Made by a program: the position numbers and the translations under genes. Positions 5,521 through 30,629 of a DNA stretch of 31,502 nt are shown in pieces. The stretch's first letter is position 1; each line of letters begins with the position of its first letter. The notes beneath the pieces were generated by a model. That model saw nothing but the letters and a program-made list of their open reading frames with translations, did no database searches and was not told the origin of the DNA. The DNA lies in contig CALMVH010000206.1 in the NCBI GenBank assembly GCA_937873165.1, positions 1 through 31,502 of the forward strand. Direction: 5' to 3'. This DNA is from an uncultured Rhodospirillales bacterium (GTDB lineage Bacteria; Pseudomonadota; Alphaproteobacteria; CALMVH01).

Positions 5521-7897
5521 TATACCCGCCTTTCGGCACAAGCACCTCGCGCTTGCCCACGTGGTTGGCCTGGCTGACGACGCCTTCCTTTTCCATGCGC
5601 TCGATCAGGCGCGCGGCCTTGTTGTAGCCGATCTGGAAATGGCGCTGCACAAAGCTGGTGGAGGCCTTGCGTTCGCGCGCCACCAGGGCCACCGCCTTGT
5701 CGTACAGGTCGTCGCCGCTGCCGCTCTCCGCTGCCTCGTCGCCGCCGCTGTCACTGTCTCCGAACTCGGGATCTTCCTCGGTGATCGCATCGATGTAGGC
5801 AGGCTCGCCCTGCTTCTTCAGGAACGCGGCAATGTGCTCCACCTCCTCGTCGCGCACGAACGGTCCATGCACGCGTATGATGCGCCCCCCTGACGCCACG
5901 TACAGCATGTCGCCTTGGCCCAGCAGTTGCTCCGCGCCGGACTCGTTCAGGATTGTGCGGCTGTCGATCTTCGAACTGACGGCAAAGCTGATGCGCGTTG
6001 GAAAGTTTGCCTTGATCGTACCGGTGATCACGTCGACGGAGGGGCGTTGCGTCGCCATGATCAGGTGGATGCCGGCGGCGCGCGCCTTTTGCGCCAAGCG
6101 CTGGATTGCGACCTCGATATCCTTGCCCGCGACCAGCATGAGGTCTGCGAATTCATCCACCACCACAACGATGTACGGCAGTTCCGTCGTCTCGATCGCC
6201 TGATCCTCGAACAGCGGCTTGCCGGTATCGGGATCGAACCCTGTCTGCACCGTCCGGGTCAGCACCTCGCCTTTTTCGCGCGCCTCCCTCAGGCGCTGGT
6301 TGTAGCCGTCGATGTTGCGCACGTTCAGTTTCTGCATGGCGCGGTAACGGTCTTCCATCTCGCGCACCGTCCAGTTCAGCGCCACAACCGCCTTTTTCGG
6401 TTCGGTCACCACCGGCGTCAGCAGGTGCGGGATGCCGTCGTAGACAGACAGTTCCAGCATTTTCGGATCGATCATGATGAAACGGCACTGCTCGGGCTGC
6501 AGGCAGTACAACAGCGACAGGATCATGGTATTGATCGCGACCGACTTGCCTGATCCCGTGGTGCCCGCGACCAGCAGATGCGGCATGCGGGCCAGATCGA
6601 CGGTGATCGGCTGGCCCCCGATATCCTTGCCGAGAACCAGCGGCAGCTTCAACTGGGTCCGCTGGTAGGTTTCGCTTTCCAGCATCTCGCGCATGTACAC
6701 AGTTTCGCGGATCTTGTTCGGCAGTTCGATGCCGATCGCGTTGCGGCCCGGTACCACGGCCACGCGCACGGACACGGCGCTGAGCGAACGCGCGATGTCG
6801 TCAGCCAGCCCGATCACCCGGCTGGATTTGGTGCCGGGGGCAGGCTCCAGCTCGTACAGCGTGACGACGGGACCGGGATTGATGCGCACGATGTCGCCGC
6901 GCACGCCGAAATCGCTGAGCACGCCCTGCAACGCCTGCGAAGTCGCTTCCAGCGCGTCGCGGCTCAGATCGGGACTCACTTTCGCGGCCGGCGGCAACTG
7001 CATCAGATGCGTCGGCGGCAACGAATATTCATCGATGGGAAGCAAATCCTGTCCGGTTGCCGCCCGCGCGGGTTCCGCGGCAGTTTTCTTCACGATCTGC
7101 GGAGCCTTGCGCTTTTCCGCCGCACGAACCACCACCGGCGCGTCTTCCTCGACGGGCGGTTCGTCTTGGTCGTCCGGCTCCGGCTCGTGCCCACGACGCG
7201 CCGCCAGGCTGCGCGTTTGTTCCGAAAGGGTATGCGCAAGGTCGCGCGTCTTCGTGGCAGTGGCCCGGCTGGCGGACATGCCCCCGGTTACCGCCTTGCC
7301 CCATTCGGTCAAGGTGAAGCCCAACAGCCCGATCATCAGCAGGGCGGACGATATCAGGCCTACCCCCTCGACAAGGAAGGGCGCGGCCATGCCCAGCGCC
7401 GGACGCAGCATGCGGCTGGATGCCGCTTGCGCAAGGTCTCCGATGCTGCCGCCCGCCGTATCGAACAGGGTGAACGGGATGATCCCCAGCACCGTTGCCG
7501 AGGTAATAAGGCAAAGCAGCAGCGCCACGATGCGTAGCCACCAGCGTTTCATGGGACGCCGGACCAGGATGAACGTGCCCCAGGCGGCAAACGTCAGAGG
7601 CACCAGAAACGCGGCGAAGCCGAGCGTGAACAGGAACAGGTCCGCGGCATAGGCTCCGGGGCGGCCGGCGAGATTGGTAGGATCGCTGCGCGTCGCATGA
7701 TCGAACGAGGGATCGGCGTGGTTATAAGTCGCAAACGAAATGGCCAGAACCATGGCCAGGGCAATCAGGCAAAGCGCGCCGAGGTCGATCAGGCGCCGAT
7801 GGATAAAGCTGCGGAAAGCCGGAGGAAGGATCGGCGTGCGCTTTGCCGATTTTCCGAACCGCGCCGCGGATGTTCCTGCATAGGCCGTACGTGCCAT
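5510..7897 (-). CDS. ftsK: DNA translocase FtsK
   Basis: N-terminal 4TM domain, GPVVTLYELEP, PHLLVAGTTGSGKS, IDPKMLELS, ATQRPSVDVITG, gamma domain STSFVQRHFQIGYNKAARL. Confidence 0.98.
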   Translation of the reverse strand: MARTAYAGTSAARFGKSAKRTPILPPAFRSFIHRRLIDLGALCLIALAMVLAISFATYNHADPSFDHATRSDPTNLAGRPGAYAADLFLFTLGFAAFLVPLTFAAWGTFILVRRPMKRWWLRIVALLLCLITSATVLGIIPFTLFDTAGGSIGDLAQAASSRMLRPALGMAAPFLVEGVGLISSALLMIGLLGFTLTEWGKAVTGGMSASRATATKTRDLAHTLSEQTRSLAARRGHEPEPDDQDEPPVEEDAPVVVRAAEKRKAPQIVKKTAAEPARAATGQDLLPIDEYSLPPTHLMQLPPAAKVSPDLSRDALEATSQALQGVLSDFGVRGDIVRINPGPVVTLYELEPAPGTKSSRVIGLADDIARSLSAVSVRVAVVPGRNAIGIELPNKIRETVYMREMLESETYQRTQLKLPLVLGKDIGGQPITVDLARMPHLLVAGTTGSGKSVAINTMILSLLYCLQPEQCRFIMIDPKMLELSVYDGIPHLLTPVVTEPKKAVVALNWTVREMEDRYRAMQKLNVRNIDGYNQRLREAREKGEVLTRTVQTGFDPDTGKPLFEDQAIETTELPYIVVVVDEFADLMLVAGKDIEVAIQRLAQKARAAGIHLIMATQRPSVDVITGTIKANFPTRISFAVSSKIDSRTILNESGAEQLLGQGDMLYVASGGRIIRVHGPFVRDEEVEHIAAFLKKQGEPAYIDAITEEDPEFGDSDSGGDEAAESGSGDDLYDKAVALVARERKASTSFVQRHFQIGYNKAARLIERMEKEGVVSQANHVGKREVLVPKGGYNDD

Positions 7898-7964
7898 TTA
7901 TTTCCGTTTCAAGTCGGTACAAACCGGAAACAGATTAGCGAAAACGAGTCCCTAGTGGAAGCTT

Positions 7965-9743
7965 TTACTGCTTGGTCGCGACCGGGGCCATCAGAACCGC
8001 ATGCTCCGCCGGGGGCGAAAGCAACGTGCCCAGAACAGGGCGCAGCGCCATCAGCAGCGTTGCATTCGCGGCATCCCGACCTAGCCACGAACGGCCGCGC
8101 ATCAGCGCATCGTCCGAATCCTCGTCCTTGTTGAGCAACACGGAATGCAAGAGCTCCGACAGGGTCGGCTCGTGCGGAATCTCGTCGATCTCGATCTGGT
8201 CGTCTGCTTTCAGCCCCATCGCTTCCTTGGCACGCCGGATGGCGGTATCCAGCCCGCCCAGCTCATCCACCAGTCCGATATCCTTCGCCTGCTTGCCGGT
8301 ATAAACGTGGCCTTTGGCGATATCCTCGACCTTTTCATCCGACATCTTCCGTCCGTCGGCGACCAGTCCCTTGAAGTGGTTGTAGATATCGTCCAGCAAC
8401 TGGTTCTGCTTTGCCAGCTGTTCGGGCGTGAAGGCGTGGAAAGGCGAGTCCATGTCGGCGTTCTGCCCGATGGTGACGGATTGTCCGACGACGCTGTAGT
8501 CCGACATCAGCTTGCCGATCACCGGCTTGCCGCCCAGCACGCCGATCGAACCCGTCAGGGTGGCGGGCTCGGCGATGATCTTGTCCGCGTCCGCCGCGAT
8601 CCAGTACCCGCCCGATCCCGCGACCTCGCCCATCGACACGATCACGGGCTTGCCGGCATCCTTTGCCAGCAACACCCCGTTGCGGATCGTTTCGGACGCC
8701 ACGACGGATCCACCGGGACTGTTGATGCGGAACACGATGGCCTTGACGTCGTCGTCCTCGGAAGCCTGCTTGAACGCCAGCAGCACGTCGCGGGGATCGC
8801 TGGCCTGGTTGTCCGACAGCGGGTCAAGCGGATTCGCACCGGTGTGGCGTGCCAGTTCGCCCTGCGCGTAGATCAGGGCGATCTTCGACTTCGTGTCGGG
8901 AGCGGGCAGCGCGCCGAGGTAGTGGTGCACCGATATCGTGTCGTCCGTCGAAGTCTGGTCCTGCAGATCGTCCAGCGCTTGGTCGCGGTAATCGATCTCG
9001 TCGATCAGCTTGGCATCCTTGGCGGCATCGGCGCTCAGCGGCCCGGTGTCCAAGAGACGGCGCAGCGCCCCGACATCGACCTTGCGGTAGGCCGCCACGC
9101 CGTCCACGATCTGGGTCACGATGTCGTTCAGCAGGCTTTCCGTCATTTCGCGGTTGGCGGGCGTGAAGCCGCTTTCGCTCAGATTGTCGAAGGCGGTCTT
9201 GTACTGCTCGCGCTTGGTCACCTGGAACTCGACGCCATATTTTGCCAGCGCGTCCTTCAGGAAGAACTCGTCGGCCGAGATCCCCATCAGGCCGACCGTG
9301 CCCATCGGCTGCAGCCAGATCTTGTCGGCGGCGGTTGCCAGATAGAACTCGGCGGCTCCCGGACCCTGCTCGCCAAAGGTATCGGCAAAGGCATACACGG
9401 GCTTGCCGCTGCGGCGGAATGCCAGGATGGCGTCGTGAAGTTCCTGCGCCTGCGTCAGGGGCAGGTTGTCCGTGATGTCGATGAACACGCCCTTGATCCG
9501 GTCGTCGTTCGCGGCGGTGTGCAGTGCTGTCAGGGCATCGCCCAGCGACATCTGCCGCGCCAGTTTCAGCGGGTCGAATCCCGGCTTTTCCTGCAACTCG
9601 CCTTCGATTGTCATCGCCAGGATGGCCTTGGCGGGAAGAACGGGACTGGAGTGAGCGACGCGCAGATATATACCCCCCGCCACGAGAACGCCGAGAACCG
9701 CCAGAAGCCCCAAGGCAGCAAAGATACGAGTCAGAATGCGCAT
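7965..9743 (-). CDS. sppA: Signal peptide peptidase SppA (long tandem-domain form)
   Basis: N-terminal TM anchor, KREQYKTA, FRINSPGGS, SMGEVAGSGGYWI, TGSIGV, IAKGHVYTG. Confidence 0.94.
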   Translation of the reverse strand: MRILTRIFAALGLLAVLGVLVAGGIYLRVAHSSPVLPAKAILAMTIEGELQEKPGFDPLKLARQMSLGDALTALHTAANDDRIKGVFIDITDNLPLTQAQELHDAILAFRRSGKPVYAFADTFGEQGPGAAEFYLATAADKIWLQPMGTVGLMGISADEFFLKDALAKYGVEFQVTKREQYKTAFDNLSESGFTPANREMTESLLNDIVTQIVDGVAAYRKVDVGALRRLLDTGPLSADAAKDAKLIDEIDYRDQALDDLQDQTSTDDTISVHHYLGALPAPDTKSKIALIYAQGELARHTGANPLDPLSDNQASDPRDVLLAFKQASEDDDVKAIVFRINSPGGSVVASETIRNGVLLAKDAGKPVIVSMGEVAGSGGYWIAADADKIIAEPATLTGSIGVLGGKPVIGKLMSDYSVVGQSVTIGQNADMDSPFHAFTPEQLAKQNQLLDDIYNHFKGLVADGRKMSDEKVEDIAKGHVYTGKQAKDIGLVDELGGLDTAIRRAKEAMGLKADDQIEIDEIPHEPTLSELLHSVLLNKDEDSDDALMRGRSWLGRDAANATLLMALRPVLGTLLSPPAEHAVLMAPVATKQ

Positions 9744-9752
9744 GAACTATCC

Positions 9753-10835
9753 TTAGGGTCTCGACCCCTCGCGGGTCAATGCCTTCTGGCGAAGCAGGAA
9801 GTCCGCCAGCACCAGCGCCATCATTGCCTCGCCGACCGGCACCGCCCGAATCCCGACGCAAGGGTCGTGGCGCCCCTTGGTTGAGATGCTCGTCTCGCCG
9901 GGGTTGAGGTCGATCGTGCGCCTTGGGCTCAAGATCGAACTTGTCGGCTTGACCGCGAAACGCACAACGATGTCCTGACCCGTCGATATCCCGCCCAGTA
10001 TGCCGCCCGCGTGGTTGGCGGCAAAGGCAGGCTGGCCGTTGTCCAAGTACATTTCGTCGGCGTTGTCCTCGCCCGACAGCGCGGCCGATGCGAACCCATC
10101 GCCGATCTCGACACCCTTCACTGCGTTGATACCCATCACGGCGGATGCCAGCACTGCGTCCAGTTTTTCGTACACCGGCTCGCCCAGTCCGGGTGGCACG
10201 CCACGGGCGGTGACTTCGATTACCGCCCCGGTGGACGAACCCGCCTTGCGGATGTCGTCGAGGTAGGTTTCCCACTGGATCGCGGCCTGGGGATCGGGGC
10301 AGAAGAACGGGTTTGCGTCGATGGCGGCATCGTCCCAACGGCTGCGGTCGATCCTCTGTGCGCCGATCTGGACCAGTGCGCCCCGGATCGAAATATCGGG
10401 GATGATCTTGCGCGCCACGGCCCCCGCCGCAACGCGCATCGCGGTTTCCCGCGCCGAAGACCGCCCGCCGCCGCGGTAGTCGCGGATGCCGTATTTGGCC
10501 CAATAGGTGTAATCGGCGTGTCCGGGCCGGAACTTGTCCTTGATGTCGCCGTAATCCTTCGAGCGCGCATCGACGTTCTCGATCAGCAGCGAAATGGGGG
10601 TGCCGGTCGTCACGCCTTCGAACACCCCGGAGAGAATTTTTACCTGATCGGTTTCGCGGCGCTGGGTGGTGAAGCGGTTCTGCCCGGGCGCGCGCTTGTC
10701 GAGGAAGGGCTGGATATCGGCTTCGGACAAGGGGATCAGAGGCGGCACGCCATCCAGCACGCACCCGATGGCCGGGCCATGGCTTTCGCCCCAGGTGGTA
10801 AATCGCAGTTGCGTGCCGGAACCGTTGCCCGCCAT
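9753..10835 (-). CDS. aroC: Chorismate synthase
   Basis: [53 protein letters not shown]. Confidence 0.98.
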
Positions 10836-10841
10836 GGCGGC

Positions 10842-11699
10842 TCAGGCGGCGGAAGGCTTGCCGACCAGCCCCTGCAACAGGTCCGAAACCCCTTCCGCGG
10901 CATCCACCGCGACCATGCCGACCGTGTGATACCCGGCATCGACGTGCAGGATTTCACCGCTGACGCCCGAACCCAGCTCGCTCAGCAGGTACAAGGCCGA
11001 GTTGCCGACATCCTGGATGGTCACGTTGCGCCGGAGCGGCGCGTTCAGCTCGTTCCATTTCAGGATATAGCGGAAATCGGAGATGCCGCTGGCCGCCAGC
11101 GTCTTGATGGGTCCCGCCGAGATGGCGTTGACGCGGATATTCTTCTGTCCAAGGTCCACCGCCAGGTACCGTACCGAAGCCTCCAGGGCGGCCTTCGCCA
11201 CGCCCATGACATTGTAATGCGGCATGACCTTCTCGGCGCCATAATAGCTGAGGGTCAGCATCGATCCGCCGTTCGGCATCAGCTTTTCCGCCGCCTTCGC
11301 AATGGCGGTGAACGAGAACGCGGAAACATCCAGGGTCATCTGGAAGTTCTTGCGGGTGGTATCGACGTAGCGCCCGTCCAGTTCGGCCTTGTCGGAAAAG
11401 GCGATGGCGTGGACGACGAAGTCCAAGGTGCCCAGCTGTTTCTGGACCTTGGCAAACAGGGTTTCTATGGCATCGTCATCGGTCACGTCGCAGGCTTCGA
11501 TGAACGATGACTTGAGGGATTCGGCCAAGGGGCGGACGCGCTTCTCGATGGCATCGCCCGCATAGGTAAAGCCCAGGGTGGCGCCCTGCGCGGCACACGC
11601 GGTCGCGATGCCCCACGCAAGGGAACGTTCATTCGTCACGCCCATGATCAGGCCGCGCTTGCCCGCAAGAAGAGATCCCGTCATTCCACTATCAGTCAT
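10842..11699 (-). CDS. fabI: Enoyl-ACP reductase FabI
   Basis: GKRGLIMGVTNERSLAWGIA, VHAIAFS, YNVMGVAKAALE, RVNAISAGPIKTLAA; ATG 11699 follows an AGGGG SD. Confidence 0.97.
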   Translation of the reverse strand: MTDSGMTGSLLAGKRGLIMGVTNERSLAWGIATACAAQGATLGFTYAGDAIEKRVRPLAESLKSSFIEACDVTDDDAIETLFAKVQKQLGTLDFVVHAIAFSDKAELDGRYVDTTRKNFQMTLDVSAFSFTAIAKAAEKLMPNGGSMLTLSYYGAEKVMPHYNVMGVAKAALEASVRYLAVDLGQKNIRVNAISAGPIKTLAASGISDFRYILKWNELNAPLRRNVTIQDVGNSALYLLSELGSGVSGEILHVDAGYHTVGMVAVDAAEGVSDLLQGLVGKPSAA

Positions 11700-20936: not shown

Positions 20937-22748
20937 TTACCTTGGTAACGGTCCCATGCTGGCGGAATCAACCAGATTCCGGGCCGTGTGCAACAATCCG
21001 ACATGGGAAAATGCTTGCGGGAAGTTGCCCAGCTGGCATTTGGCGATCGGATCGTACTCCTCCGCCAGCAGCCCGAGATCGTTGCGAACCGCCAAAAGTT
21101 GGTCGAACAGCACCCGCGCTTCTGGCTTGCGGCCGGTTGCGATCAACGCATCGGCCAGCCAGAACGTGCAGGCGAGGAACGATCCTTCGCCGGGTGGCAG
21201 GCCGTCGCCACTCTCGCTATCGGGCTCGTAGCGCATGACCATGCCGTTTTTCACCAGCGTTTTCTGCACGGCATCGACCGTGCCGATCACACGCGGGTCG
21301 TCGCCCGGCAGAAATCCAACCAGCGGAATGCGCAACAGCGACGCATCCAGCTTGCTGCTGCCGTAGGCCTGCATGAAGCTGTTGCGCGTCCCATCGAAAC
21401 CTTTCTCGCAGACATCGGCATGGATCCGGTCGCGTACCTTCGTCCAGCGTGCGACAGGGGCATCGAGGTTGCGCGAAGTAGCGGTCCTCACCGCGCGGTC
21501 AAACGCCAGCCAAGCCATGTCCTTGGAATAGGTATGGTGCTGCGGCGGTCCGCGCATTTCCCACAGGCCGCTGTCCGGCTGATCCCAGATGGTTTCCAGG
21601 AACTGGATAATGCTCTTGCCCATTGCCCAGGAGTCTTCGCTCGGCGGAAGCCCCATCTGACCTCCCAGCGACAGGGCATCGGCCAGTTCGCCATACACGT
21701 CCAGCTGGCGCTGCTCGCTGGCGGCGTTGCCGATGCGGACTGGCTGGCTGTCGCGGAAGCCCTTCAGCCAGGGCAGTTCCAGTTCGGTCAGCCGGCGTTC
21801 GCCCGCGATGCCGTACATGATCTGCAGATCGGCGGGCTGTCCCGCCGCCGCCCGCAAAAGCCAGCCCCGCCAGTCGCAGATTTCCTGGGTATGCCCCCAG
21901 CGCATGAACGCGTTCAACGTAAAGGCCGCGTCGCGCACCCAGCAGTAACGATAGTCCCAGTTACGCACGCTGCCCGGCCACTCGGGCAGCGAGGTCGTGA
22001 CCGCCGCCACGATCCCGCCTGACAGCGTGTTGGTCAGGGCCTTCAGGGTGATCAGCGACCGCACAACAGCTTCGCGCATTTCGCCCACGCCATCCGCGCA
22101 GGTGCCAACCCATCGCCGCCAGTACCGGCGGGTTTTTCCCAGCAGGTGATCGGCCGAGCGGGGCAGCATGTCTTCCAGGTACGACATGTGCCAGCTCATC
22201 TCCAGCGGAATGCGCTGCTCCTTGCGGACGGTGAACCGCCCTTCGGTGTGCATGTCCTTGCCTTCCAGCGGCACGGGGGTGCGGATGCGTACCGAATAAG
22301 GGCCGGAGATGGCGTAAATACCCTCGTCCACGCTGCGCACCCAGGGAATGGTCGATCCATAATCGAAGCGCAGGTACAGTACCGTCTGCATCTCGACCTC
22401 GCCTTCGACGCATTCCACGATCCGCACCAAGCGACCGTGCGAAGGCTGAGTGTCGATCGGCATAAAATCGGTCAGTTCGACCACGCCCGTCGAGGTCTCG
22501 AACCGGGTGACGAGAACCAGCGTATCTTCCTCGTAAAAGCGGGTGATTGATTTCGGTTCGCCAACGGGAGCCACCTGCCAGTAGCCGTTCTCCGCCTCGC
22601 CCAGCAAACGGGCGAACACGGCGCCGCTGTCGAAGCGCGGCAGGCAAAGCCAGTCGATGCAGCCGTTGCGGTTCACCAGCGCGGCTGTGTGGAGATTGCC
22701 GATAACGCCGTAATCTTCGATGCGGCCCGGACGGGAAAGCTGATCCAT
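20937..22748 (-). CDS. Glycoside hydrolase family 15 (trehalase/glucoamylase-like)
   Basis: IEDYGVIGNLHTAALV, WLCLPRFDS, RNWDYRYCWVRDA, QLDVYGE, SGLWEMRG, LLAEEYD, GNFPQAFSH. Confidence 0.93.
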   Translation of the reverse strand: MDQLSRPGRIEDYGVIGNLHTAALVNRNGCIDWLCLPRFDSGAVFARLLGEAENGYWQVAPVGEPKSITRFYEEDTLVLVTRFETSTGVVELTDFMPIDTQPSHGRLVRIVECVEGEVEMQTVLYLRFDYGSTIPWVRSVDEGIYAISGPYSVRIRTPVPLEGKDMHTEGRFTVRKEQRIPLEMSWHMSYLEDMLPRSADHLLGKTRRYWRRWVGTCADGVGEMREAVVRSLITLKALTNTLSGGIVAAVTTSLPEWPGSVRNWDYRYCWVRDAAFTLNAFMRWGHTQEICDWRGWLLRAAAGQPADLQIMYGIAGERRLTELELPWLKGFRDSQPVRIGNAASEQRQLDVYGELADALSLGGQMGLPPSEDSWAMGKSIIQFLETIWDQPDSGLWEMRGPPQHHTYSKDMAWLAFDRAVRTATSRNLDAPVARWTKVRDRIHADVCEKGFDGTRNSFMQAYGSSKLDASLLRIPLVGFLPGDDPRVIGTVDAVQKTLVKNGMVMRYEPDSESGDGLPPGEGSFLACTFWLADALIATGRKPEARVLFDQLLAVRNDLGLLAEEYDPIAKCQLGNFPQAFSHVGLLHTARNLVDSASMGPLPR

Positions 22749-22834
22749 GGGTTGATGAACGGGGGCGGCGGCGGCGGGGTTCCTCATTTCCGACGGTTTC
22801 GAACTATGCTAAGGACCCTCGACAGCGGGGGAAT

Positions 22835-23671
22835 ATGATGAGCCACAAAATCGGGATCGTGACGGGAGCATCCAGCGGCATCGGGACCGAGACTGCGATT
22901 GGCTTGGCAAAGCAGGGGTTTCACGTCGTGATGGTGGGCCGCAATCCGCAGAAGTCGGAAGCCGCGCGCAAGCGGGTGTGGGCGGCGGTTCCGGATGCCA
23001 AGGTCGACCTGCTGCTGTGCGATTTTGCGTCCCTCGGCGCCGTGCGTGACCTCGCCGGCACCATTCTTGCGCATTACGACCGCATCGATGTCCTGGTGAA
23101 CAATGCCGGGCTGTTCGAAATGAAGCGGACGGAAACAAAAGATGGGTTCGAAACGACATTCGGCGTCAACCATCTTGCGCCTTTTCTCCTGACGAACCTG
23201 TTGCTGGACCGCCTGATCGCTTCGGGCAGCAGCCGTATCGTCAACGTTGCGTCCGTAGCGCATCGCCGCGCGCATCTGGACTTCACCGACCTGCAAAGCA
23301 ATCGCAACTACGGCTGGCTGAAGGCTTATAGCCGTTCAAAACTGGCGAACATCCTGTTCACACGTGAACTGGCAAAGCGCCTGGCCGGCACCTCCGTCAC
23401 TGCCAACTGCCTGCATCCGGGACTGGTGGCGACCAGCATCGCACGGGGTGGATTCTTCCCGAGCCTGTCCATGAAATTGGCGCGCCCGTTCCTGATCTCG
23501 CCGGCAAAGGGAGCCGAAACATCTGTTTACCTCGCCACCTCGCCCGAGGTGGAGAGAGTGAGCGGCCGGTACTTCGACAAAAGCGCGGACACCGAACCAT
23601 CCGAAGCAGCCCGCAACGATGCGGACGCCGCCCGGCTCTGGGATGTCAGCGCGAAGATGGTGAAGCTGTAA
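22835..23671 (+). CDS. SDR oxidoreductase (retinol dehydrogenase/WWOX-like)
   Basis: TGASSGIG, LVNNAG, FGVNHL, YSRSK (YxxxK), LHPGLVAT. Confidence 0.92.
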   Translation: MMSHKIGIVTGASSGIGTETAIGLAKQGFHVVMVGRNPQKSEAARKRVWAAVPDAKVDLLLCDFASLGAVRDLAGTILAHYDRIDVLVNNAGLFEMKRTETKDGFETTFGVNHLAPFLLTNLLLDRLIASGSSRIVNVASVAHRRAHLDFTDLQSNRNYGWLKAYSRSKLANILFTRELAKRLAGTSVTANCLHPGLVATSIARGGFFPSLSMKLARPFLISPAKGAETSVYLATSPEVERVSGRYFDKSADTEPSEAARNDADAARLWDVSAKMVKL

Positions 23672-23792: not shown

Positions 23793-24668
23793 ATGCCGCA
23801 ATTGTCTGATGGCTGGCCAGCGCTGCTTGCGCAGCCGGTCAAGCAGGCGATCACCAGGCAGGTCACCGCGTTGCTCAGCGATCCGGCCCGGAACCCGCCT
23901 GTCCAGCGCCGGCCCGACGGGTTGTTCGGGCCAAATGCGGTTGCCTGGCGGGTGCATGGCGACGTCACGTCGATGATGGTCGGCGGTGTCGCGGGCCTCA
24001 TGCTGCAGATGCTGCATCCGGCCGTCCTGGCGGGGGTATGGGATCACTCGAACTTTCGCGCCGACATGCACGGCCGCCTGAAGCGCACGGCGCGGTTCAT
24101 CGCGCTGACCACCTACGGCAGCCGTGCGGAAGCAGAGTCGGTTATTGCGCGGGTGCGCTCCATCCACGATCACGTTAACGGGACCATGCCCGATGGCACC
24201 CCTTACGCCGCGAACGATCCAGCGCTTTTGGCGTGGGTGCACCTGACCGAAACCAGCAGTTTCCTGGATGCCTGGATCCGGTATGCCGAGCCGCGCATGT
24301 CGCGCATCGACCAAGACCGGTATTTCGCGGAGATGGTCCAGATCGCCGAAGCGCTGGGCGCCGATCCCGTCCCGAGATCCAGAAGACAGGCAGACGATCT
24401 TGTCCATGCCATGCGGCCACTGATGCTGTGCGACGACCGCACGCGCGAGGTCGGCCGCCTGGTCCTGACCCAGCGCGCGCCGAGCAAGGCAGCCGAGCCG
24501 GTGCAGGCGCTTGCTCTCCAGGCAGGCGTCGACCTGTTGCCGCCCTGGGCGCGGCGGATGCACGGCTTGCCTGCGCCGGCCTTCAACCGCCCTCTGTTAA
24601 GGGGCGGTACAATGGGAATGGCGCGCACCATGCGTTGGGCGTTCAAGGCAGATAGTCCCAGCGAGTGA
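23793..24668 (+). CDS. MpaB'/DUF2236 family oxygenase-like protein
   Basis: AWRVHGD..SMMVGG..GLMLQMLHP..LAGVWDHS, RL.RT, IHDHV.G, YAANDP.LL.WVH. Confidence 0.85.
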   Translation: MPQLSDGWPALLAQPVKQAITRQVTALLSDPARNPPVQRRPDGLFGPNAVAWRVHGDVTSMMVGGVAGLMLQMLHPAVLAGVWDHSNFRADMHGRLKRTARFIALTTYGSRAEAESVIARVRSIHDHVNGTMPDGTPYAANDPALLAWVHLTETSSFLDAWIRYAEPRMSRIDQDRYFAEMVQIAEALGADPVPRSRRQADDLVHAMRPLMLCDDRTREVGRLVLTQRAPSKAAEPVQALALQAGVDLLPPWARRMHGLPAPAFNRPLLRGGTMGMARTMRWAFKADSPSE

Positions 24669-24770
24669 CCGGCTGGCGAAGATTTGACCTTTAAGCGCGC
24701 CACTTCGTAGTGCCGTGACCTAGCGACACAAAGGGCTGGACACCAAACAAGACCGACGGTACACAACGTT

Positions 24771-24791
24771 GATTTTGATAATCATTCGCAA
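24771..24791. promoter_or_regulatory. Fur box upstream of the NAS-like operon
   Basis: GATTTTGATAATCATTCGC matches GATAATGATAATCATTATC at 15/19 positions; 7-1-7 core TGATAAT-C-ATTCGCA ends 19 nt before the ATG. Confidence 0.8.
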
Positions 24792-24809
24792 CATCGAACT
24801 TGGACTCTT

Positions 24810-25751
24810 ATGTCACCTCAACAAAATGCCCCTTCGCAACGCGGCAATGTCGCGGAGATGGTTGGAGCTTATCTGGAAGCCTATGCAGTCCTGAGCACAG
24901 CGGCTGACTTTTCCCCGCGCAATGCGGACGTAACTCGCACGCTGACCAAGTTGGTGGCAAGAGCGTCGAAGCCCTATAGTGCGCAGGAGACGCAAAGCAT
25001 ACTGGGGCACCCGGAGGTTCGCCCGCGCATACGCAAGATGTGGTCGTACCTCAGCCGCGCCGAGGCGGAGATGGAAGCGTTTTTCGGTGAGAAGCTGGAC
25101 AAAAGCACCGTTACGGACTTCCCGTACTTGAAGAACTACCAGCAACTTGCCGCTGCCGAGATCAGTCAGTGGAACCGGTCTTTGCACTTCAGGTCTCCCG
25201 AAAGCGCTGGCGCAATTGCCTTGCCAGGGGCCGGGCCGCTGCCCCTGACGGCCGTTGTGATGCATCAGCAAACCGGCCGCCCGATCACTTGTATCGACTC
25301 GGATCCCGGCGCGGTCAGGATCGGGTCGCGGTTCCTGGCCAGATGCGGGTTGGCGAAAGATATCACCTACGTTCACGCCGATGCAGCCTCGCACGACTAC
25401 CGAGGGCATTCGGCGGTTCTGGTGGCAAGTCTGATCGGTGACAAGCACGGCGTGACCAAACAGATCATGAAATCAAAGCATACCCGTGAATACGCTGTGC
25501 GCAGTGCAGAGGGTACTCATATCTTGCTGTACCCACCGGTGCCGTCGCAACTGCCCCGCAAACACGGCATTACCTTTGACCGCCGAACCGCTCCCACGCC
25601 CGAGATCATCAATACGACCTTGTTTGCAACGCTACCTGTTCCTCCCGCGGCGTCCGACAATCTACGCGCAGCCGGAAACGCTGCAACCCAGAACGGGCTT
25701 TGTAAGCTGCCACCGGTACGCCGTCCGGCGCCCGGTCATCCGGAAGCCTGA
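24810..25751 (+). CDS. Nicotianamine synthase family (CntL-like SAM-dependent aminobutanoyltransferase)
   Basis: AEAEME, FPYLKNYQQL (FPYxxNYxxL), GAGPLPLT (GSGPLP), VLVASL, RSAEG..LLYP, which are the hallmark NAS motifs. Confidence 0.88.
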   Translation: MSPQQNAPSQRGNVAEMVGAYLEAYAVLSTAADFSPRNADVTRTLTKLVARASKPYSAQETQSILGHPEVRPRIRKMWSYLSRAEAEMEAFFGEKLDKSTVTDFPYLKNYQQLAAAEISQWNRSLHFRSPESAGAIALPGAGPLPLTAVVMHQQTGRPITCIDSDPGAVRIGSRFLARCGLAKDITYVHADAASHDYRGHSAVLVASLIGDKHGVTKQIMKSKHTREYAVRSAEGTHILLYPPVPSQLPRKHGITFDRRTAPTPEIINTTLFATLPVPPAASDNLRAAGNAATQNGLCKLPPVRRPAPGHPEA

Positions 25752-25759
25752 AGGTCTCT

Positions 25760-26632
25760 ATGTCGCCCCGTATCGCGCTGATCACTTGCCGCACCTGGCC
25801 AGCGTTGTCCAAGTCAGACCTGCTCTACGCCTCGGCGTTGCAAGATCTGGGAGCAATCGTTGAAGCGGTACCTTGGAATGGCACGCAAGATTACCGTCTT
25901 TCCGAGTACGATGCGGCAGTCCTTCGCAGCAATTGGGACTATCACGACAACGTGCCGGAGTTCAAAAGCTGGTTGCGGTCGGTTGATGACTCCGATGCTG
26001 TACTGCTGAATCCCTGCAAGGACGTCCTGTACTTTCTGGACAAAAGGTCGCTGCTGGAACTTCAGGCAAACGGAGTGCCCATGGGCAAGGTACGCGCGGT
26101 AGACTGCGATGCCGATGCCGTCAGGAGTGTTCTGGCCGAAGAAAGCTGGGAAAAAGCCGTTTTAAAGCCGGTCTATGGCGCCAGCGGACGCGGCGTCGAA
26201 CTGGTGCAAAAAGAGGATGCCGAGGCTGCCGTCGACCGGCTTAAACGAGATGTGGGACCCCGAGACCTGCTTGTTCAGGAATTCCTGCCGGAGATCCAGT
26301 CGGGCGAAATCCAGATGGTTTTTTTCAATGGCAATTTCTCGCACGCTGTGCGGAAGATTCCTGCGGCGGGCGAGTTCCGAACGAACTCGAAGCATGATCC
26401 CGTTGTAGAAAACTACTATCCTGATGACACTTCGATACAATCGGCCCGGACTATATTGCTGTCTCTTGACTCGGTTCCTCTCTACGCGCGCGTCGATGGA
26501 GTGCTGCGCGACGGCCAATTTATCTTGAACGAACTGGAAGTAAACGAACCGGGGCTTTGGCTGGACCGGGCAGGGCCTGATGCCGCCGCCTGGTTCGCCC
26601 AGGCTACCCTGCAACGGATCCTAGCAGCCTAG
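25760..26632 (+). CDS. ATP-grasp ligase, DcsG/RimK-like subfamily
   Basis: LRSNWDY, LLNP, VLKPVYGASGRG, VQEFLPEI..GE, HAVRK.P..GEFR, YARVD, ELEVNEP; starts 8 nt after the NAS stop. Confidence 0.85.
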   Translation: MSPRIALITCRTWPALSKSDLLYASALQDLGAIVEAVPWNGTQDYRLSEYDAAVLRSNWDYHDNVPEFKSWLRSVDDSDAVLLNPCKDVLYFLDKRSLLELQANGVPMGKVRAVDCDADAVRSVLAEESWEKAVLKPVYGASGRGVELVQKEDAEAAVDRLKRDVGPRDLLVQEFLPEIQSGEIQMVFFNGNFSHAVRKIPAAGEFRTNSKHDPVVENYYPDDTSIQSARTILLSLDSVPLYARVDGVLRDGQFILNELEVNEPGLWLDRAGPDAAAWFAQATLQRILAA

Positions 26633-27519
26633 GTCGCTCGATAAGCGCTGCCATCCTCGACGTGAATGGGGTTTTCCACATACACGCCATGATCGGGAAC
26701 GGCGATCGCATCGAAGTTGTCTGCCAGCAGGTGCAGCGCGCGCCGCATGTCCAGTCCTTTCATGGCGCGGCCATGACCGGGAACAGCCAGTTCCGGCTCA
26801 AGCGCCGCAAGGGATCGAACGGAGTTCCGCGCCTGGTCCCAGTTCTGTGTGAAGTATTTTGGCGGGCCGTGGATTTCAGGTTTCTGCAGCGCGACGGCAT
26901 AGGCCGATTCCTGCGCGGTCGTGCAGAACGCATCGGCCACGATCAGCGCCTTGTCCTCCGGCCGCCAGAGCGACGCGTGACCCGGGCTGTGGCCGGGGGT
27001 AGGAAGCCACTGCCAGCCGGGCATGCCGGGCACCGTTCCATCCGCAGGCAGCGTGTGCAGCGACGCCCCTAAATCGATGGGACCTCGCGGATAAAGCTCC
27101 GACAGCGAGGCCATCATTCCACCCCCGACGCCGGGATCGGGCGGCTGGTAAGCGGAGGTTCCGTCCACATAAGGCCGCTCGAACTCGTGGATGTACACGG
27201 GTACGTTCCAGTGCTTCAGCAGGTCCCTTGCCGAGCCGACATGGTCGAAATGGCCATGTGTCAGAATAATGGCCTGCGGCGGTTGCCCCGCGAAGCGCTT
27301 GTCGGCCACCGCGCGGATCGCCCCGGCAGACCCGGGAATGCCGGTGTCGACCAGCGTCCACGGCGATCCCGGCCGCCCAAAAAAGACGACATTGACGATC
27401 GCCGTTCGCATATACGCCAGATCGGCGGCAACCTCATGCGTATCGTCGTTCCGCCCTGTATCCGCCGCAGGATCGTCGGCTCGGCTTGCCGGGTTCAGCG
27501 ATAGATCGAGCTTCGGCAT
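26629..27519 (-). CDS. MBL-fold metallo-hydrolase
   Basis: LVDTG, THGHFDH, TPGHSPGH, VADAF, PGHG; its stop overlaps the ATP-grasp stop (CTAG). Confidence 0.9.
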   Translation of the reverse strand: MPKLDLSLNPASRADDPAADTGRNDDTHEVAADLAYMRTAIVNVVFFGRPGSPWTLVDTGIPGSAGAIRAVADKRFAGQPPQAIILTHGHFDHVGSARDLLKHWNVPVYIHEFERPYVDGTSAYQPPDPGVGGGMMASLSELYPRGPIDLGASLHTLPADGTVPGMPGWQWLPTPGHSPGHASLWRPEDKALIVADAFCTTAQESAYAVALQKPEIHGPPKYFTQNWDQARNSVRSLAALEPELAVPGHGRAMKGLDMRRALHLLADNFDAIAVPDHGVYVENPIHVEDGSAYRAT

Positions 27520-27639: not shown

Positions 27640-29088
27640 TCAGAAACTCCGGCCCGCCGAGCTTTCGGACAAATTGGCTCGAACTTCATCCAGTGAGTAC
27701 GGCCGTGTGCATTGTCCATTGCGGAAAACTTCCTGCAACTCGCCGGTCGCTTCCTCGGCGTCGTTCACCTGGTCCTTCGTGACGTAGCCTCCGAGGCCAT
27801 CGCGCGTCAGGGTCATGAGGCCCCGCTTGCTTTTCTTTGAGGGATCGGTGGCCGGATCCTTGTAGATTTCGACCTTCTCGCCGTGCTGGCGCACGATGCG
27901 GGTCGCCTTGACGGAAAATGCCAGTTCGTCGCGGTTGTGGTTTTGCAGCAACAGGCCGCCCACGCCGATCACCAGGTTGCTGCTGGCAAAGCCCAGTGTT
28001 TCCATGCGGGCGAGGATGGTTTCGAAACGCTCGTAGTACATGCCATCGCCATAGATCAAGCCAACGTGGCTATCGAGGACGCGGTAGCCCTTGCTGTTTA
28101 CCGTGCCGCCGAAAACGTCCCACAGCAGTTCGAGCGAGCCCTTGATCTCGGGAGAGGCACCCTCGGACGGTGCCCCATCGGCCTGCGGGATACCGCAAAT
28201 GATGTCTTCCGGCGTGCCGCTGTCGGGCCGGAACACCACCTTGCCCTGCCGGGCCATGATCCGGTCGCGGCGGCGCGGGGCGTAGTCGGTCAGGATCTTG
28301 AAATAATCGTACGTATCGCTGACGATGCTCACCACCCCGGCCGGGTAGAGGTCCAGCATGCGGTCGAAGGCCTCATATTCGCCGTCGCGGCCGAAGCTGC
28401 ACATCACGCTGTGTTCGCTGGCGGGCACGCTGCGGCCCTTCACCGATCCGGCGGCGTCGTAGAACTTGTCGAGGAACCAGTTGGCGATCACCGTGTCGCT
28501 GCCCTGGAAATTCAGCAGGTGGGCAGCGCCGCTGATGGCCGCCGTTTCCTCCGAGCTTACCCCGCGGTAACCGAAATCGTGCACCTGGTAGGGAATGTGG
28601 TCCAGGGTGTCGCATGTCCGCTCGGCGTAGCGCAGTACCAGCTCGTGGAACTTGCGGCTGTGCGTTGCGACCGTGCAGGAGTTCCAGACTTTCAGCAGCA
28701 GGCTTTCCACAAACCCCACGCACCAGAAGAATTCGGGTCTGGTGTTGCGGATGCTGAAGAGGATGTTGCGGCTGCCGAGGCGGGTGCCTTCGGGCACGGC
28801 CTTGATGCTGAGCGGCCAGTACCCGAGATCGGTCAGCGCCCGGATCTTTTCCTGAACGGAAGGGGATGGCTCGCCCAGGATCTCGCGGTGGTACTGCAGG
28901 AACTCCTCTCCGTTCTTGCGCGTCAGCGGCTTCGACAGGTACTCCATGAGAATGTATTGCAGGCCAAAGAACACAACCGGCTGGTTCGGCTTGCGCGCTT
29001 CGAGGTAGCTGTACACCTCGACGGTATCGCCGGGGTATTGCTCCATGTGGCCCATCTTGTAGACGTCGGTCAGTAGCAGGGGATTCAT
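27640..29088 (-). CDS. nadV: Nicotinamide phosphoribosyltransferase (NadV/NAMPT family)
   Basis: TDVYKMGHMEQYP, HDFGYRGVSS, AHLLNFQGSDT (Asp at the nicotinamide-specificity position), PASEHS, VSDTYD, RPDSG, YGDGM; GGAGGA SD. The real start is internal to the 567-aa ORF call. Confidence 0.9.
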   Translation of the reverse strand: MNPLLLTDVYKMGHMEQYPGDTVEVYSYLEARKPNQPVVFFGLQYILMEYLSKPLTRKNGEEFLQYHREILGEPSPSVQEKIRALTDLGYWPLSIKAVPEGTRLGSRNILFSIRNTRPEFFWCVGFVESLLLKVWNSCTVATHSRKFHELVLRYAERTCDTLDHIPYQVHDFGYRGVSSEETAAISGAAHLLNFQGSDTVIANWFLDKFYDAAGSVKGRSVPASEHSVMCSFGRDGEYEAFDRMLDLYPAGVVSIVSDTYDYFKILTDYAPRRRDRIMARQGKVVFRPDSGTPEDIICGIPQADGAPSEGASPEIKGSLELLWDVFGGTVNSKGYRVLDSHVGLIYGDGMYYERFETILARMETLGFASSNLVIGVGGLLLQNHNRDELAFSVKATRIVRQHGEKVEIYKDPATDPSKKSKRGLMTLTRDGLGGYVTKDQVNDAEEATGELQEVFRNGQCTRPYSLDEVRANLSESSAGRSF

Positions 29089-29879
29089 GGCTGTTCCTCC
29101 GTGATGAAATCGTTCAGGATTTGCTGCGCGCTCGACACCGTCAGGCCCTCCCGCGGTGTTTGCGGAAAGCTGTCGGTCGTATGGATCGCCTCGATCCCCG
29201 CCTCGAACAGCCGTTCGATGCCTTTGGTGAAGATGCCGTGGGTAATCGCCAGGCTGATGCTGCGCGCGCCGTGCCGCCGGAGATAGTCCGCCAGCATGAT
29301 AAACGTGCCACCGGCATCGCAGATATCGTCGGCGATCAGGCACTCGCGGCCTTCAACCGCGCCGAAGATGCCTTCGATCTCCAGGCTTCCCGTCGCAGTA
29401 TCCCGATGCTTCAGGGCGGTTGCGACGCTGGCAAAGGCGGGCGCGTACGCGGTCGCCTTTTTGACCGCGCCCTGATCGGGTATTACCAATGTCATCTCGC
29501 CTGTCCGCGCCTCCAGCGCCGGTATGACAAATCGCGATTGCGGCACGTTTACCAGCCGGTCGATGCAGGCGAAAGCAACGTCCGAGTGGGCATCCAGCGT
29601 GTAGATGCGGCGGCAGGGCGCGGCATTCAGCAGGCTGCCAACGACTTTCAGCGAAAACGGCTCTGCCTTGCTGGTGGGGCGATCCTGCCTGCCATACGGC
29701 AGGTATGGCAGAAACAGATCGAAGGGTTGCCCATCGCGCGCACGGTGATTGGCATCGCATGCCAGCAGCACGGACATCAGGTAGTCGTTGAGGTTCGGCT
29801 GCATCGGCAGGAACAGCAGCTCCTCCCGGCCATCCAGCTTGCAGTGCGCTTCGCCTGCGGGAAACTTGAAAACATTCAT
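29085..29879 (-). CDS. prs: Ribose-phosphate pyrophosphokinase-like protein (short Prs/Adps-type, 264 aa)
   Basis: FKFPAGE, PYLPYGRQDR, LDAHS, PDQGA, K.RD, DDICDAGGTF; ATGA overlaps on both sides. Confidence 0.88.
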   Translation of the reverse strand: MNVFKFPAGEAHCKLDGREELLFLPMQPNLNDYLMSVLLACDANHRARDGQPFDLFLPYLPYGRQDRPTSKAEPFSLKVVGSLLNAAPCRRIYTLDAHSDVAFACIDRLVNVPQSRFVIPALEARTGEMTLVIPDQGAVKKATAYAPAFASVATALKHRDTATGSLEIEGIFGAVEGRECLIADDICDAGGTFIMLADYLRRHGARSISLAITHGIFTKGIERLFEAGIEAIHTTDSFPQTPREGLTVSSAQQILNDFITEEQP

Positions 29880-30580
29880 ATCGTTCGTCCCAGGAAAGGA
29901 GTGGCATCGGAGCGTATGCGGTAGAGCTGCGAGGGCCGGTTGCTGGCGTGGCGCATTTCGCCGGGCACCGGCTCCAGCAGGCCGGCATCGGCCATCTTCT
30001 TGCGGAAGGCGGACTTGTCCAGCCGACGGTCTAGGATCTGCTCGTACACCGATTGCAGGTCGGGCAGGGTGAACTTCGCCGGCAGCAGATGCGCCGGCAG
30101 GATGGTATATTCCACCTTGCCGCGCAGGCGTTCGAGTCCTGTCCGCAGAATCAGGTCGTGATCGAAGGCGAGAACAGGCCGGGTCTCGACGGGGTGCCAC
30201 GCCACATCCTCGGCATTGGCGCCGCTTTGCAGCGCCAGCTGTTCGGAGGCAATCAGCGCAAAGTACGCAAAGGTCGCGGTCCAGCCGCGCGGGTCGCGCC
30301 GGGCGTTGCCAAAGCCTTGCAGTTGCTCGATGTAGGGTGTCGCGACGGCTGTCTTGCTGCCAAGGATACGCGCCGCCGCCCCGTCGAGGCTCTCGTCCTC
30401 GTCCGGCCGGACATAGCCGCCCGGCAAGGCCCACATGCCTTCGAAAGGCGGTACCGCGCGCTGCATCAACAGGACCTGCAACTGCCCTTCGCGCAGCGTG
30501 AAGATCACCAGATCCACCGTAACGAAGGGCCGGGGACACTGGGCTGGGGAAATGTCTTGCGAGGCACTCGCTTTGGTCAT
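29876..30580 (-). CDS. nrtR: NrtR family Nudix-related transcriptional regulator
   Basis: VTVDLVIFT, WALPGG, degenerate Nudix box (AARILGSKT instead of RELxEETG), EQL..F...RDPRG, LAFDH, wHTH FTLPDLQ.VYE.IL...DK..FRKK. Confidence 0.93.
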   Translation of the reverse strand: MTKASASQDISPAQCPRPFVTVDLVIFTLREGQLQVLLMQRAVPPFEGMWALPGGYVRPDEDESLDGAAARILGSKTAVATPYIEQLQGFGNARRDPRGWTATFAYFALIASEQLALQSGANAEDVAWHPVETRPVLAFDHDLILRTGLERLRGKVEYTILPAHLLPAKFTLPDLQSVYEQILDRRLDKSAFRKKMADAGLLEPVPGEMRHASNRPSQLYRIRSDATPFLGRTI

Positions 30581-30586
30581 GACCCA

Positions 30587-30629
30587 CGGAAACATACTTA
30601 GTTGTTATAGTCAACTAAGTATGTTTCCG
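30587..30629. promoter_or_regulatory. Perfect 18-bp inverted repeat with a 7-nt spacer; putative NrtR operator
   Basis: CGGAAACATACTTAGTTG-ttatagt-CAACTAAGTATGTTTCCG, 6 nt upstream of the nrtR ATG. Confidence 0.75.

Follow-up and report, generated by a model that had tools for sequence, protein, structure and literature searches.

A nicotianamine synthase-family gene paired with an ATP-grasp ligase in uncultured Alphaproteobacteria: a candidate metallophore pathway

Nicotianamine synthase (NAS)-family enzymes transfer the aminocarboxypropyl group of SAM to an amine, so that the product gains a primary amine and a carboxylate. They vary mainly in the acceptor, which is Glu for the archaeal enzymes and His for the bacterial enzyme CntL. 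In every characterised bacterial pathway to a nicotianamine-like metallophore known to us, an opine dehydrogenase, CntM, completes the product. The second family considered here, the DcsG_N-type ATP-grasp ligases, has no role known to us for any member other than DcsG. Opine zincophore clusters have been surveyed with CntM as the bait, an approach that by the authors' own account would miss CntM-independent systems (PMC7438024); in that survey, CntM genes were almost always co-located with cntL (PMC7438024).

Here we describe a two-gene locus in which a NAS-family gene is followed directly by an ATP-grasp ligase gene. A preliminary description of the locus knew of no characterised pathway that combines these two enzymes, and a literature search found no paper pairing nicotianamine synthase with an ATP-grasp enzyme.

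The gene pair and its products

The window (the whole stretch of 31,502 nucleotides that was analysed) belongs to a metagenome-assembled genome (MAG) of 2.28 Mb in 355 contigs, which is 85.9% complete. Two open reading frames on the same strand, 8 nt apart, form the pair (Table 1), and both the frames and their spacing are as the preliminary description gave them. The unit comprises these two genes and, upstream of them, a 141-bp spacer at 24669-24809; position 24771 is the first base of a Fur-like box in that spacer, and no gene starts there. An AAGG Shine-Dalgarno-like stretch lies in the 8-nt gap, just 5' of the ligase ATG, and together with the short gap it makes translational coupling of the ligase to the NAS gene probable. 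Purifying selection acts on both, as dN/dS values of 0.24 (NAS) and 0.17 (ligase) against a 95% identical twin locus (L003) show. At the other end of the unit, the stops of the ligase and of the convergent metallo-beta-lactamase-fold gene overlap. No exporter or importer genes were found within the window. Further downstream, the window carries a NAMPT/NAPRTase-like gene and a Prs-like gene (27640-30614, minus strand); in the twin locus, these two are followed by an NrtR-like Nudix regulator.

Table 1. Features of the gene pair and its neighbourhood in the window
Feature	Position	Strand	Remarks
GH15 glucoamylase-like gene	20937-22787	minus	
Short-chain dehydrogenase	22835-23671	plus	
MpaB/Lcp-like oxygenase	23793-24668	plus	
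Fur-family operator-like box	24771..24789	.	15/19 to GATAATGATAATCATTATC; sequence GATTTTGATAATCATTCGC
NAS-family SAM-dependent 3-amino-3-carboxypropyl transferase (P0001), 313 aa	24810..25751	+	PF03059 64.7 bits
DcsG_N-type ATP-grasp ligase (P0002), 290 aa	25760..26632	+	NCBIfam DcsG 124 bits; GSH-S_ATP 49 bits
Metallo-beta-lactamase-fold gene, convergent, downstream of ligase	26629-27519	minus	

The match of P0001 to the Pfam NAS profile PF03059 (cut-off 27.1 bits) covers profile positions 6-269 of 276, and its score against the CntL equivalog model NF033601 is 17.3 bits, with a cut-off of 350. A clade profile built from 24 relatives gave seven matches in the PDB, of which the archaeal thermonicotianamine synthase structures were the best (3FPE, E = 7e-21), with the CntL structures reaching only 4e-13. 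The catalytic residues of archaeal MtNAS, E81 and Y107, align with E89 and Y110 of P0001, which do not vary within the clade; nor do a SAM-binding GxGPLP motif (G140-A-G-P-L-P145) and an RSAEG motif across the 24 relatives. The C-terminal tail is Pro/Ala-rich and poorly conserved. By its sequence, P0001 is a NAS-family enzyme and no CntL orthologue. ATP-grasp neighbours come up in one paper on azetidine-carboxylate synthases. The seven PDB structures matched by the clade profile include no such synthase. These synthases are presumably relatives of class I methyltransferases, outside the NAS family.

For P0002, the Pfam matches are to the GSH-S_ATP and RimK ATP-grasp domains, and the best NCBIfam model is DcsG, whose equivalog cut-off of 360 bits is not reached. 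The HMM searches proposed in the preliminary description thus bore out the NAS assignment and placed the second protein near DcsG, below equivalog level. Relatives of P0002 carry the DcsG_N domain, PF27100. An AF2 model of the ligase, computed from a 41-sequence alignment (pLDDT 95.6), was most similar among PDB structures to DcsG (6JIL, TM 0.86, 27% identity); RimK, LysX/ArgX and Ddl came next. All 23 of the 23 family-invariant residues are kept, including K136, E183, R207, D246, E258 and E260. In a phylogenetic tree, the two NAS-linked ligases form a branch of their own (support 100/97), which departs from the rest of the family in the NSQYGG loop and at six positions that are conserved elsewhere, as would fit a new substrate. 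No dcs cluster genes lie near the ligase, its neighbours being the NAS gene and the metallo-beta-lactamase-fold protein. P0002 is by these comparisons an intact DcsG_N-family ATP-grasp ligase and no cycloserine synthetase, and both enzymes of the pair look catalytically competent.

Distribution and metal-regulator boxes

A word-indexed search of 5.8 billion proteins returned only two NAS relatives of more than 40% identity, one from the 95% twin, where the neighbours are the same as in the window, and a 68% homologue from a second locus (L002). When 1.84 billion cluster representatives were searched exhaustively with HMMER, only one other cluster, that of L002, exceeded 40% identity. The NAS–ATP-grasp pair is present in the window, in the twin and in this one related organism (NAS 68%, ligase 57% identical). 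The ligase was absent from nine contexts of NAS homologues with 30-40% identity obtained by protein look-ups, from the vicinity of NAS-like genes at all of 11 loci in a species-level genome collection (among them Rhodospirillaceae, Hyphomicrobiaceae and Micavibrio), and from the vicinity of NAS matches among 401 genomes of the same class. Relatives of the ligase with 45-47% identity were seen in three contexts, none with a NAS gene; the 45-51% relatives are stand-alone genes, the 51% relative having a gene 25 nt upstream. The pairing is very rare and confined to one tiny clade of uncultured bacteria, so that recurrence among NAS homologues, which the preliminary description had put forward as a neighbourhood check, is not general. 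As just two species-level lineages have the pair, its conservation rests on essentially one evolutionary event. Horizontal acquisition of the pair was considered and rejected, its G+C content being just 3-5 points under that of the flanks and its divergence from L002 equal to the genome average; vertical descent within the lineage is the reading we prefer.

The organism carrying L002 is related to that of the window (BipA 92% identical, other shared genes 57-77%). There the NAS gene is followed 13 nt on by the orthologous ligase gene, and the pair stays together even though the flanks differ on both sides. Upstream lies a divergent gene for a TonB-dependent receptor, for which no close characterised relative was found, and downstream lie proC and bipA. 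A role for proC in the L002 pathway was rejected, as proC and bipA also occur together on another contig in the window's genome. The 195-bp spacer between the receptor and NAS genes contains two Zur-like boxes, one near each divergent start, each matching the 23-bp Zur consensus at 15 positions (15/23). They are the two best such boxes in the 17-kb locus, with 0.034 expected per spacer. The orthologous operon is thus preceded by Zur-type and not Fur-type boxes, and as far as sequence can tell the receptor and these boxes are a second, separate link to metal starvation.

In the window, the Fur-like box lies 21-39 nt 5' of the NAS start and matches the classical 19-bp Fur consensus. From base composition, 0.59 matches at the 15/19 level are expected in the 2.28-Mb genome and 3.4e-4 in the 141-bp spacer, in keeping with the putative Fur box given to the pair in the preliminary description. 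Four sites at this level occur in the genome, and only the one upstream of NAS is confirmed as non-coding and beside a gene start; it is also the best non-coding 7-1-7 match genome-wide. A GATAAT -10-like hexamer lies inside the box, ~28 nt before the NAS ATG; a strict sigma-70 promoter scan called no promoter at this spacer. In the 95% twin, neither the box nor the proximal spacer shows any change, while the distal spacer has many.

The genome encodes Fur-like, Irr and Zur-like regulators. Among Alphaproteobacteria, Fur homologues regulate iron in some orders and, as Mur, manganese in others, and Fur-like boxes are recognised by both kinds (PMC1698941). Since the genome encodes Irr, the Fur homologue of this organism could be of the manganese-responsive Mur type. 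The box may safely be described, from its sequence match, as a Fur-family metal operator, and iron is the leading guess for its metal. The difference in box types between the two lineages makes the metal unreadable from the window alone, and a Fur-type box in one with Zur-type boxes and a receptor in the other is as would be expected of a broad-spectrum metallophore. Of the earlier proposal that the product is made under iron limitation, the link to metal starvation is supported by the metal-regulator-like boxes, but iron is not fixed as the metal, given the Zur-type boxes at the orthologous operon and Irr in the genome.

No E. coli-type Fur regulon could be reconstructed in the genome, the other near-consensus sites being coding or situated before unrelated genes; one of them falls inside a signal-peptide codon run. 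The 86%-complete MAG yielded no FeoB, and its one FTR1-type iron permease (contig C160) has no Fur box. Two queries, PF00593 and the L002 receptor, detected no TonB-dependent receptor in it either. Elsewhere in the genome, a Fur-like AT-rich site lies ~40 nt 5' of a manganese-catalase gene (contig C52:~5934, L062), a possible Fur/PerR-type target. On another contig (C279:3120-3165, L036), two tandem Zur-type boxes, one of which agrees with the E. coli Zur consensus over its first 16 bases, lie just 5' of two CbiA/ParA-like P-loop NTPase genes and an Orn/DAP-decarboxylase-like gene. From its sequence, this would be an unusual candidate zinc-starvation operon, and its near-perfect Zur-type half box indicates that the lineage does use Zur-type boxes.

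Proposed pathway and alternatives

Candidate amine- or carboxylate-modifying enzymes also accompany other NAS-like genes as neighbours or fusion partners, namely class I methyltransferases, GNAT fusions and a PALP fusion. The commonest arrangement in Alphaproteobacteria is a NAS-like gene with a class I methyltransferase. Such clusters recur (L019 (G002:C4) 6441-11602; also L020, L037, L041 and L007), often with a second, divergent NAS-like protein; we know of no characterised product for them. Two proteins, P0260 and P0269, are natural NAS-GNAT acetyltransferase fusions, which suggests N-acylated nicotianamine-like products. In the sister genus, a 595-aa protein combines a weak NAS-like N-terminal region with a PLP-dependent (PALP) domain and is encoded beside an alpha/beta hydrolase. 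The window's own genome contains, in the last ~210 bases of contig C202 (L035:9120-9330, minus strand), a C-terminal fragment of a second NAS-like gene, cut by the contig end and located near a MazF-like toxin gene, hemF, a SpoU methylase and cytochrome c1. This setting matches that of the methyltransferase-linked NAS type, which lies beside petABC in relatives, so the genome has two NAS-like systems. The variety of enzymes beside or fused to NAS-like genes, CntM in the known systems among them, indicates that a tailoring partner is the rule in the NAS family; we infer that the NAS product is what such partners modify and that the ATP-grasp ligase belongs to their number.

We hypothesize that the pair is a two-gene, metal-starvation-induced operon for a small nicotianamine-like aminocarboxylate, probably a metallophore, in which the ATP-grasp enzyme tailors the NAS product by an amide bond. 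We place the probability of this reading at about one half. The evidence comprises the gene families, the intact catalytic residues, the tight linkage, the conservation of the pair and the metal-regulator-like boxes in both lineages. Co-transcription, the substrates, the order of the steps, the product, the bound metal and the routes of export and uptake are inferred. When metal is scarce, a Fur-family repressor would leave the promoter-overlapping box. The NAS-like enzyme would then transfer one or more 3-amino-3-carboxypropyl groups from SAM to the amine of an amino acid, with release of MTA, and the ligase would form an amide bond on this intermediate via an acyl-phosphate. The likeliest ligase reaction would be acylation of the free terminal amine by a carboxylate-bearing acid, or else extension of a carboxylate. 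The ligase would thereby do the amine tailoring for which staphylopine-type pathways use the opine dehydrogenase CntM.

Among the alternatives, the two enzymes might act in the reverse order: the ATP-grasp enzyme would join two amino acids, as glutathione synthetase and L-amino-acid ligases do, and the NAS-family enzyme would then alkylate the amine of the dipeptide. The match of the ligase to the glutathione-synthetase ATP-grasp domain is in keeping with this, as is the established variation of NAS-family enzymes in their acceptor (Glu in archaea, His for CntL), and the order of steps is not fixed by the data. We consider it unlikely all the same, as the ligase gene is downstream of the NAS gene and the partners in other family members (methyltransferase, GNAT) resemble enzymes that tailor a NAS product, although both points are suggestive only.

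It is similarly improbable that the two genes are mere neighbours with no shared pathway, and that the Fur-like box arose by chance or serves another regulator. Such a reading would account for a pairing seen in one small lineage only, for relatives of each gene that normally occur without the other, and for a genome in which no Fur regulon is definable. It does not sit well with a pair that has outlasted the rearrangement of both flanks, with spacers of 8 and 13 nt, with the divergence of the ligase branch at conserved positions, or with metal-regulator-like boxes 5' of the pair in both lineages at a low chance expectation.

The resemblance to DcsG, the closest solved structure with a TM-score of 0.86, raises a third alternative, in which the gamma-nitrogen of the terminal aminocarboxypropyl unit would attack the activated alpha-carboxylate and close a 3-amino-2-pyrrolidinone lactam, an antimetabolite or signal rather than a chelator. 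This lactam is the carbon analogue of the cycloserine ring, and on chemical reasoning an N4-substituted 2,4-diaminobutyrate has the same carboxylate-nitrogen spacing as the O-ureido-serine substrate of DcsG. However, P0002 has 27% identity to DcsG and a score a third of the equivalog cut-off, and formation of the lactam would cost chelating groups, a poor fit with the metal-regulator boxes and with the TonB-dependent receptor adjoining the pair in L002. We regard cyclisation as rather unlikely.

An ordinary CntLM-type opine pathway, with cntM and the transporter genes in the unassembled 14% of the genome, could hide in a MAG that is 85.9% complete in 355 contigs, but it is very improbable given the 17 bits of P0001 on the CntL equivalog model (cut-off 350) and its closer similarity to archaeal NAS, the almost constant position of CntM genes beside cntL (PMC7438024), and the lack of CntM within 8 kb on either side of the pair in L002. 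A cntM elsewhere in the genome, which the preliminary description had named as the finding that would speak for a standard opine, did not turn up: PF10100 and PF02317 found no CntM-type gene in the 86%-complete genome, with searches that had no positive control, the control genomes also being without matches.

Beyond amide tailoring of the NAS product in this one operon, a broader proposal may be put forward more tentatively. There may be a class of CntM-independent nicotianamine-like metallophores, in which the ATP-grasp enzyme caps or extends the aminocarboxypropyl chain by an amide, as one of several interchangeable tailoring enzymes of alphaproteobacterial NAS proteins (methyltransferase, GNAT, PLP-dependent beta-replacement, ATP-grasp), with the ATP-grasp version under Fur-like wiring in one of its two lineages and Zur-like wiring in the other. 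If true, the pathway would add a new scaffold to the small nicotianamine-like class of metallophores and offer a first way into the function of the large family of DcsG_N ATP-grasps; its reach is limited by the narrow distribution, one lineage of uncultured bacteria.

Comparison with known systems

DcsG (6JIL) shares the DcsG_N plus ATP-grasp architecture with the ligase and is the structure closest to it. DcsG is the D-cycloserine synthetase; in contrast, the ligase scores at a third of the equivalog cut-off, has no dcs genes nearby and belongs to a large family of stand-alone relatives. The PvsA-type ATP-grasp enzyme of vibrioferrin is a precedent for amide bond formation inside a small polycarboxylate metallophore. 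PvsA-type ligases, however, belong to another ATP-grasp subfamily and have NIS synthetases as partners, with no SAM aminocarboxypropyl transferase. MtNAS (PDB 3FPE/3FPF/3FPG, 3O31) is the closest solved relative of P0001 by the clade profile, with the Pfam family, the catalytic Glu and Tyr and the GxGPLP motif in common; it differs in acting alone, with no known ATP-grasp partner or Fur-type operator, and its identity to P0001 is low.

The CntL/CntM pathways (staphylopine, pseudopaline, yersinopine and bacillopaline) likewise combine a bacterial NAS-like enzyme with one tailoring enzyme, and Fur-family control, putative for the pair described here, would be a further common trait. Their exporters (EamA, MFS) and ABC importer have no counterpart in the NAS–ATP-grasp cluster, whereas the TonB-dependent receptor beside the orthologous pair in L002 recalls the pseudopaline locus. 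They also differ in the tailoring step: CntM is an NAD(P)H-dependent reductive condensing enzyme, while the partner here is, judged by its family, an ATP-dependent amide ligase.
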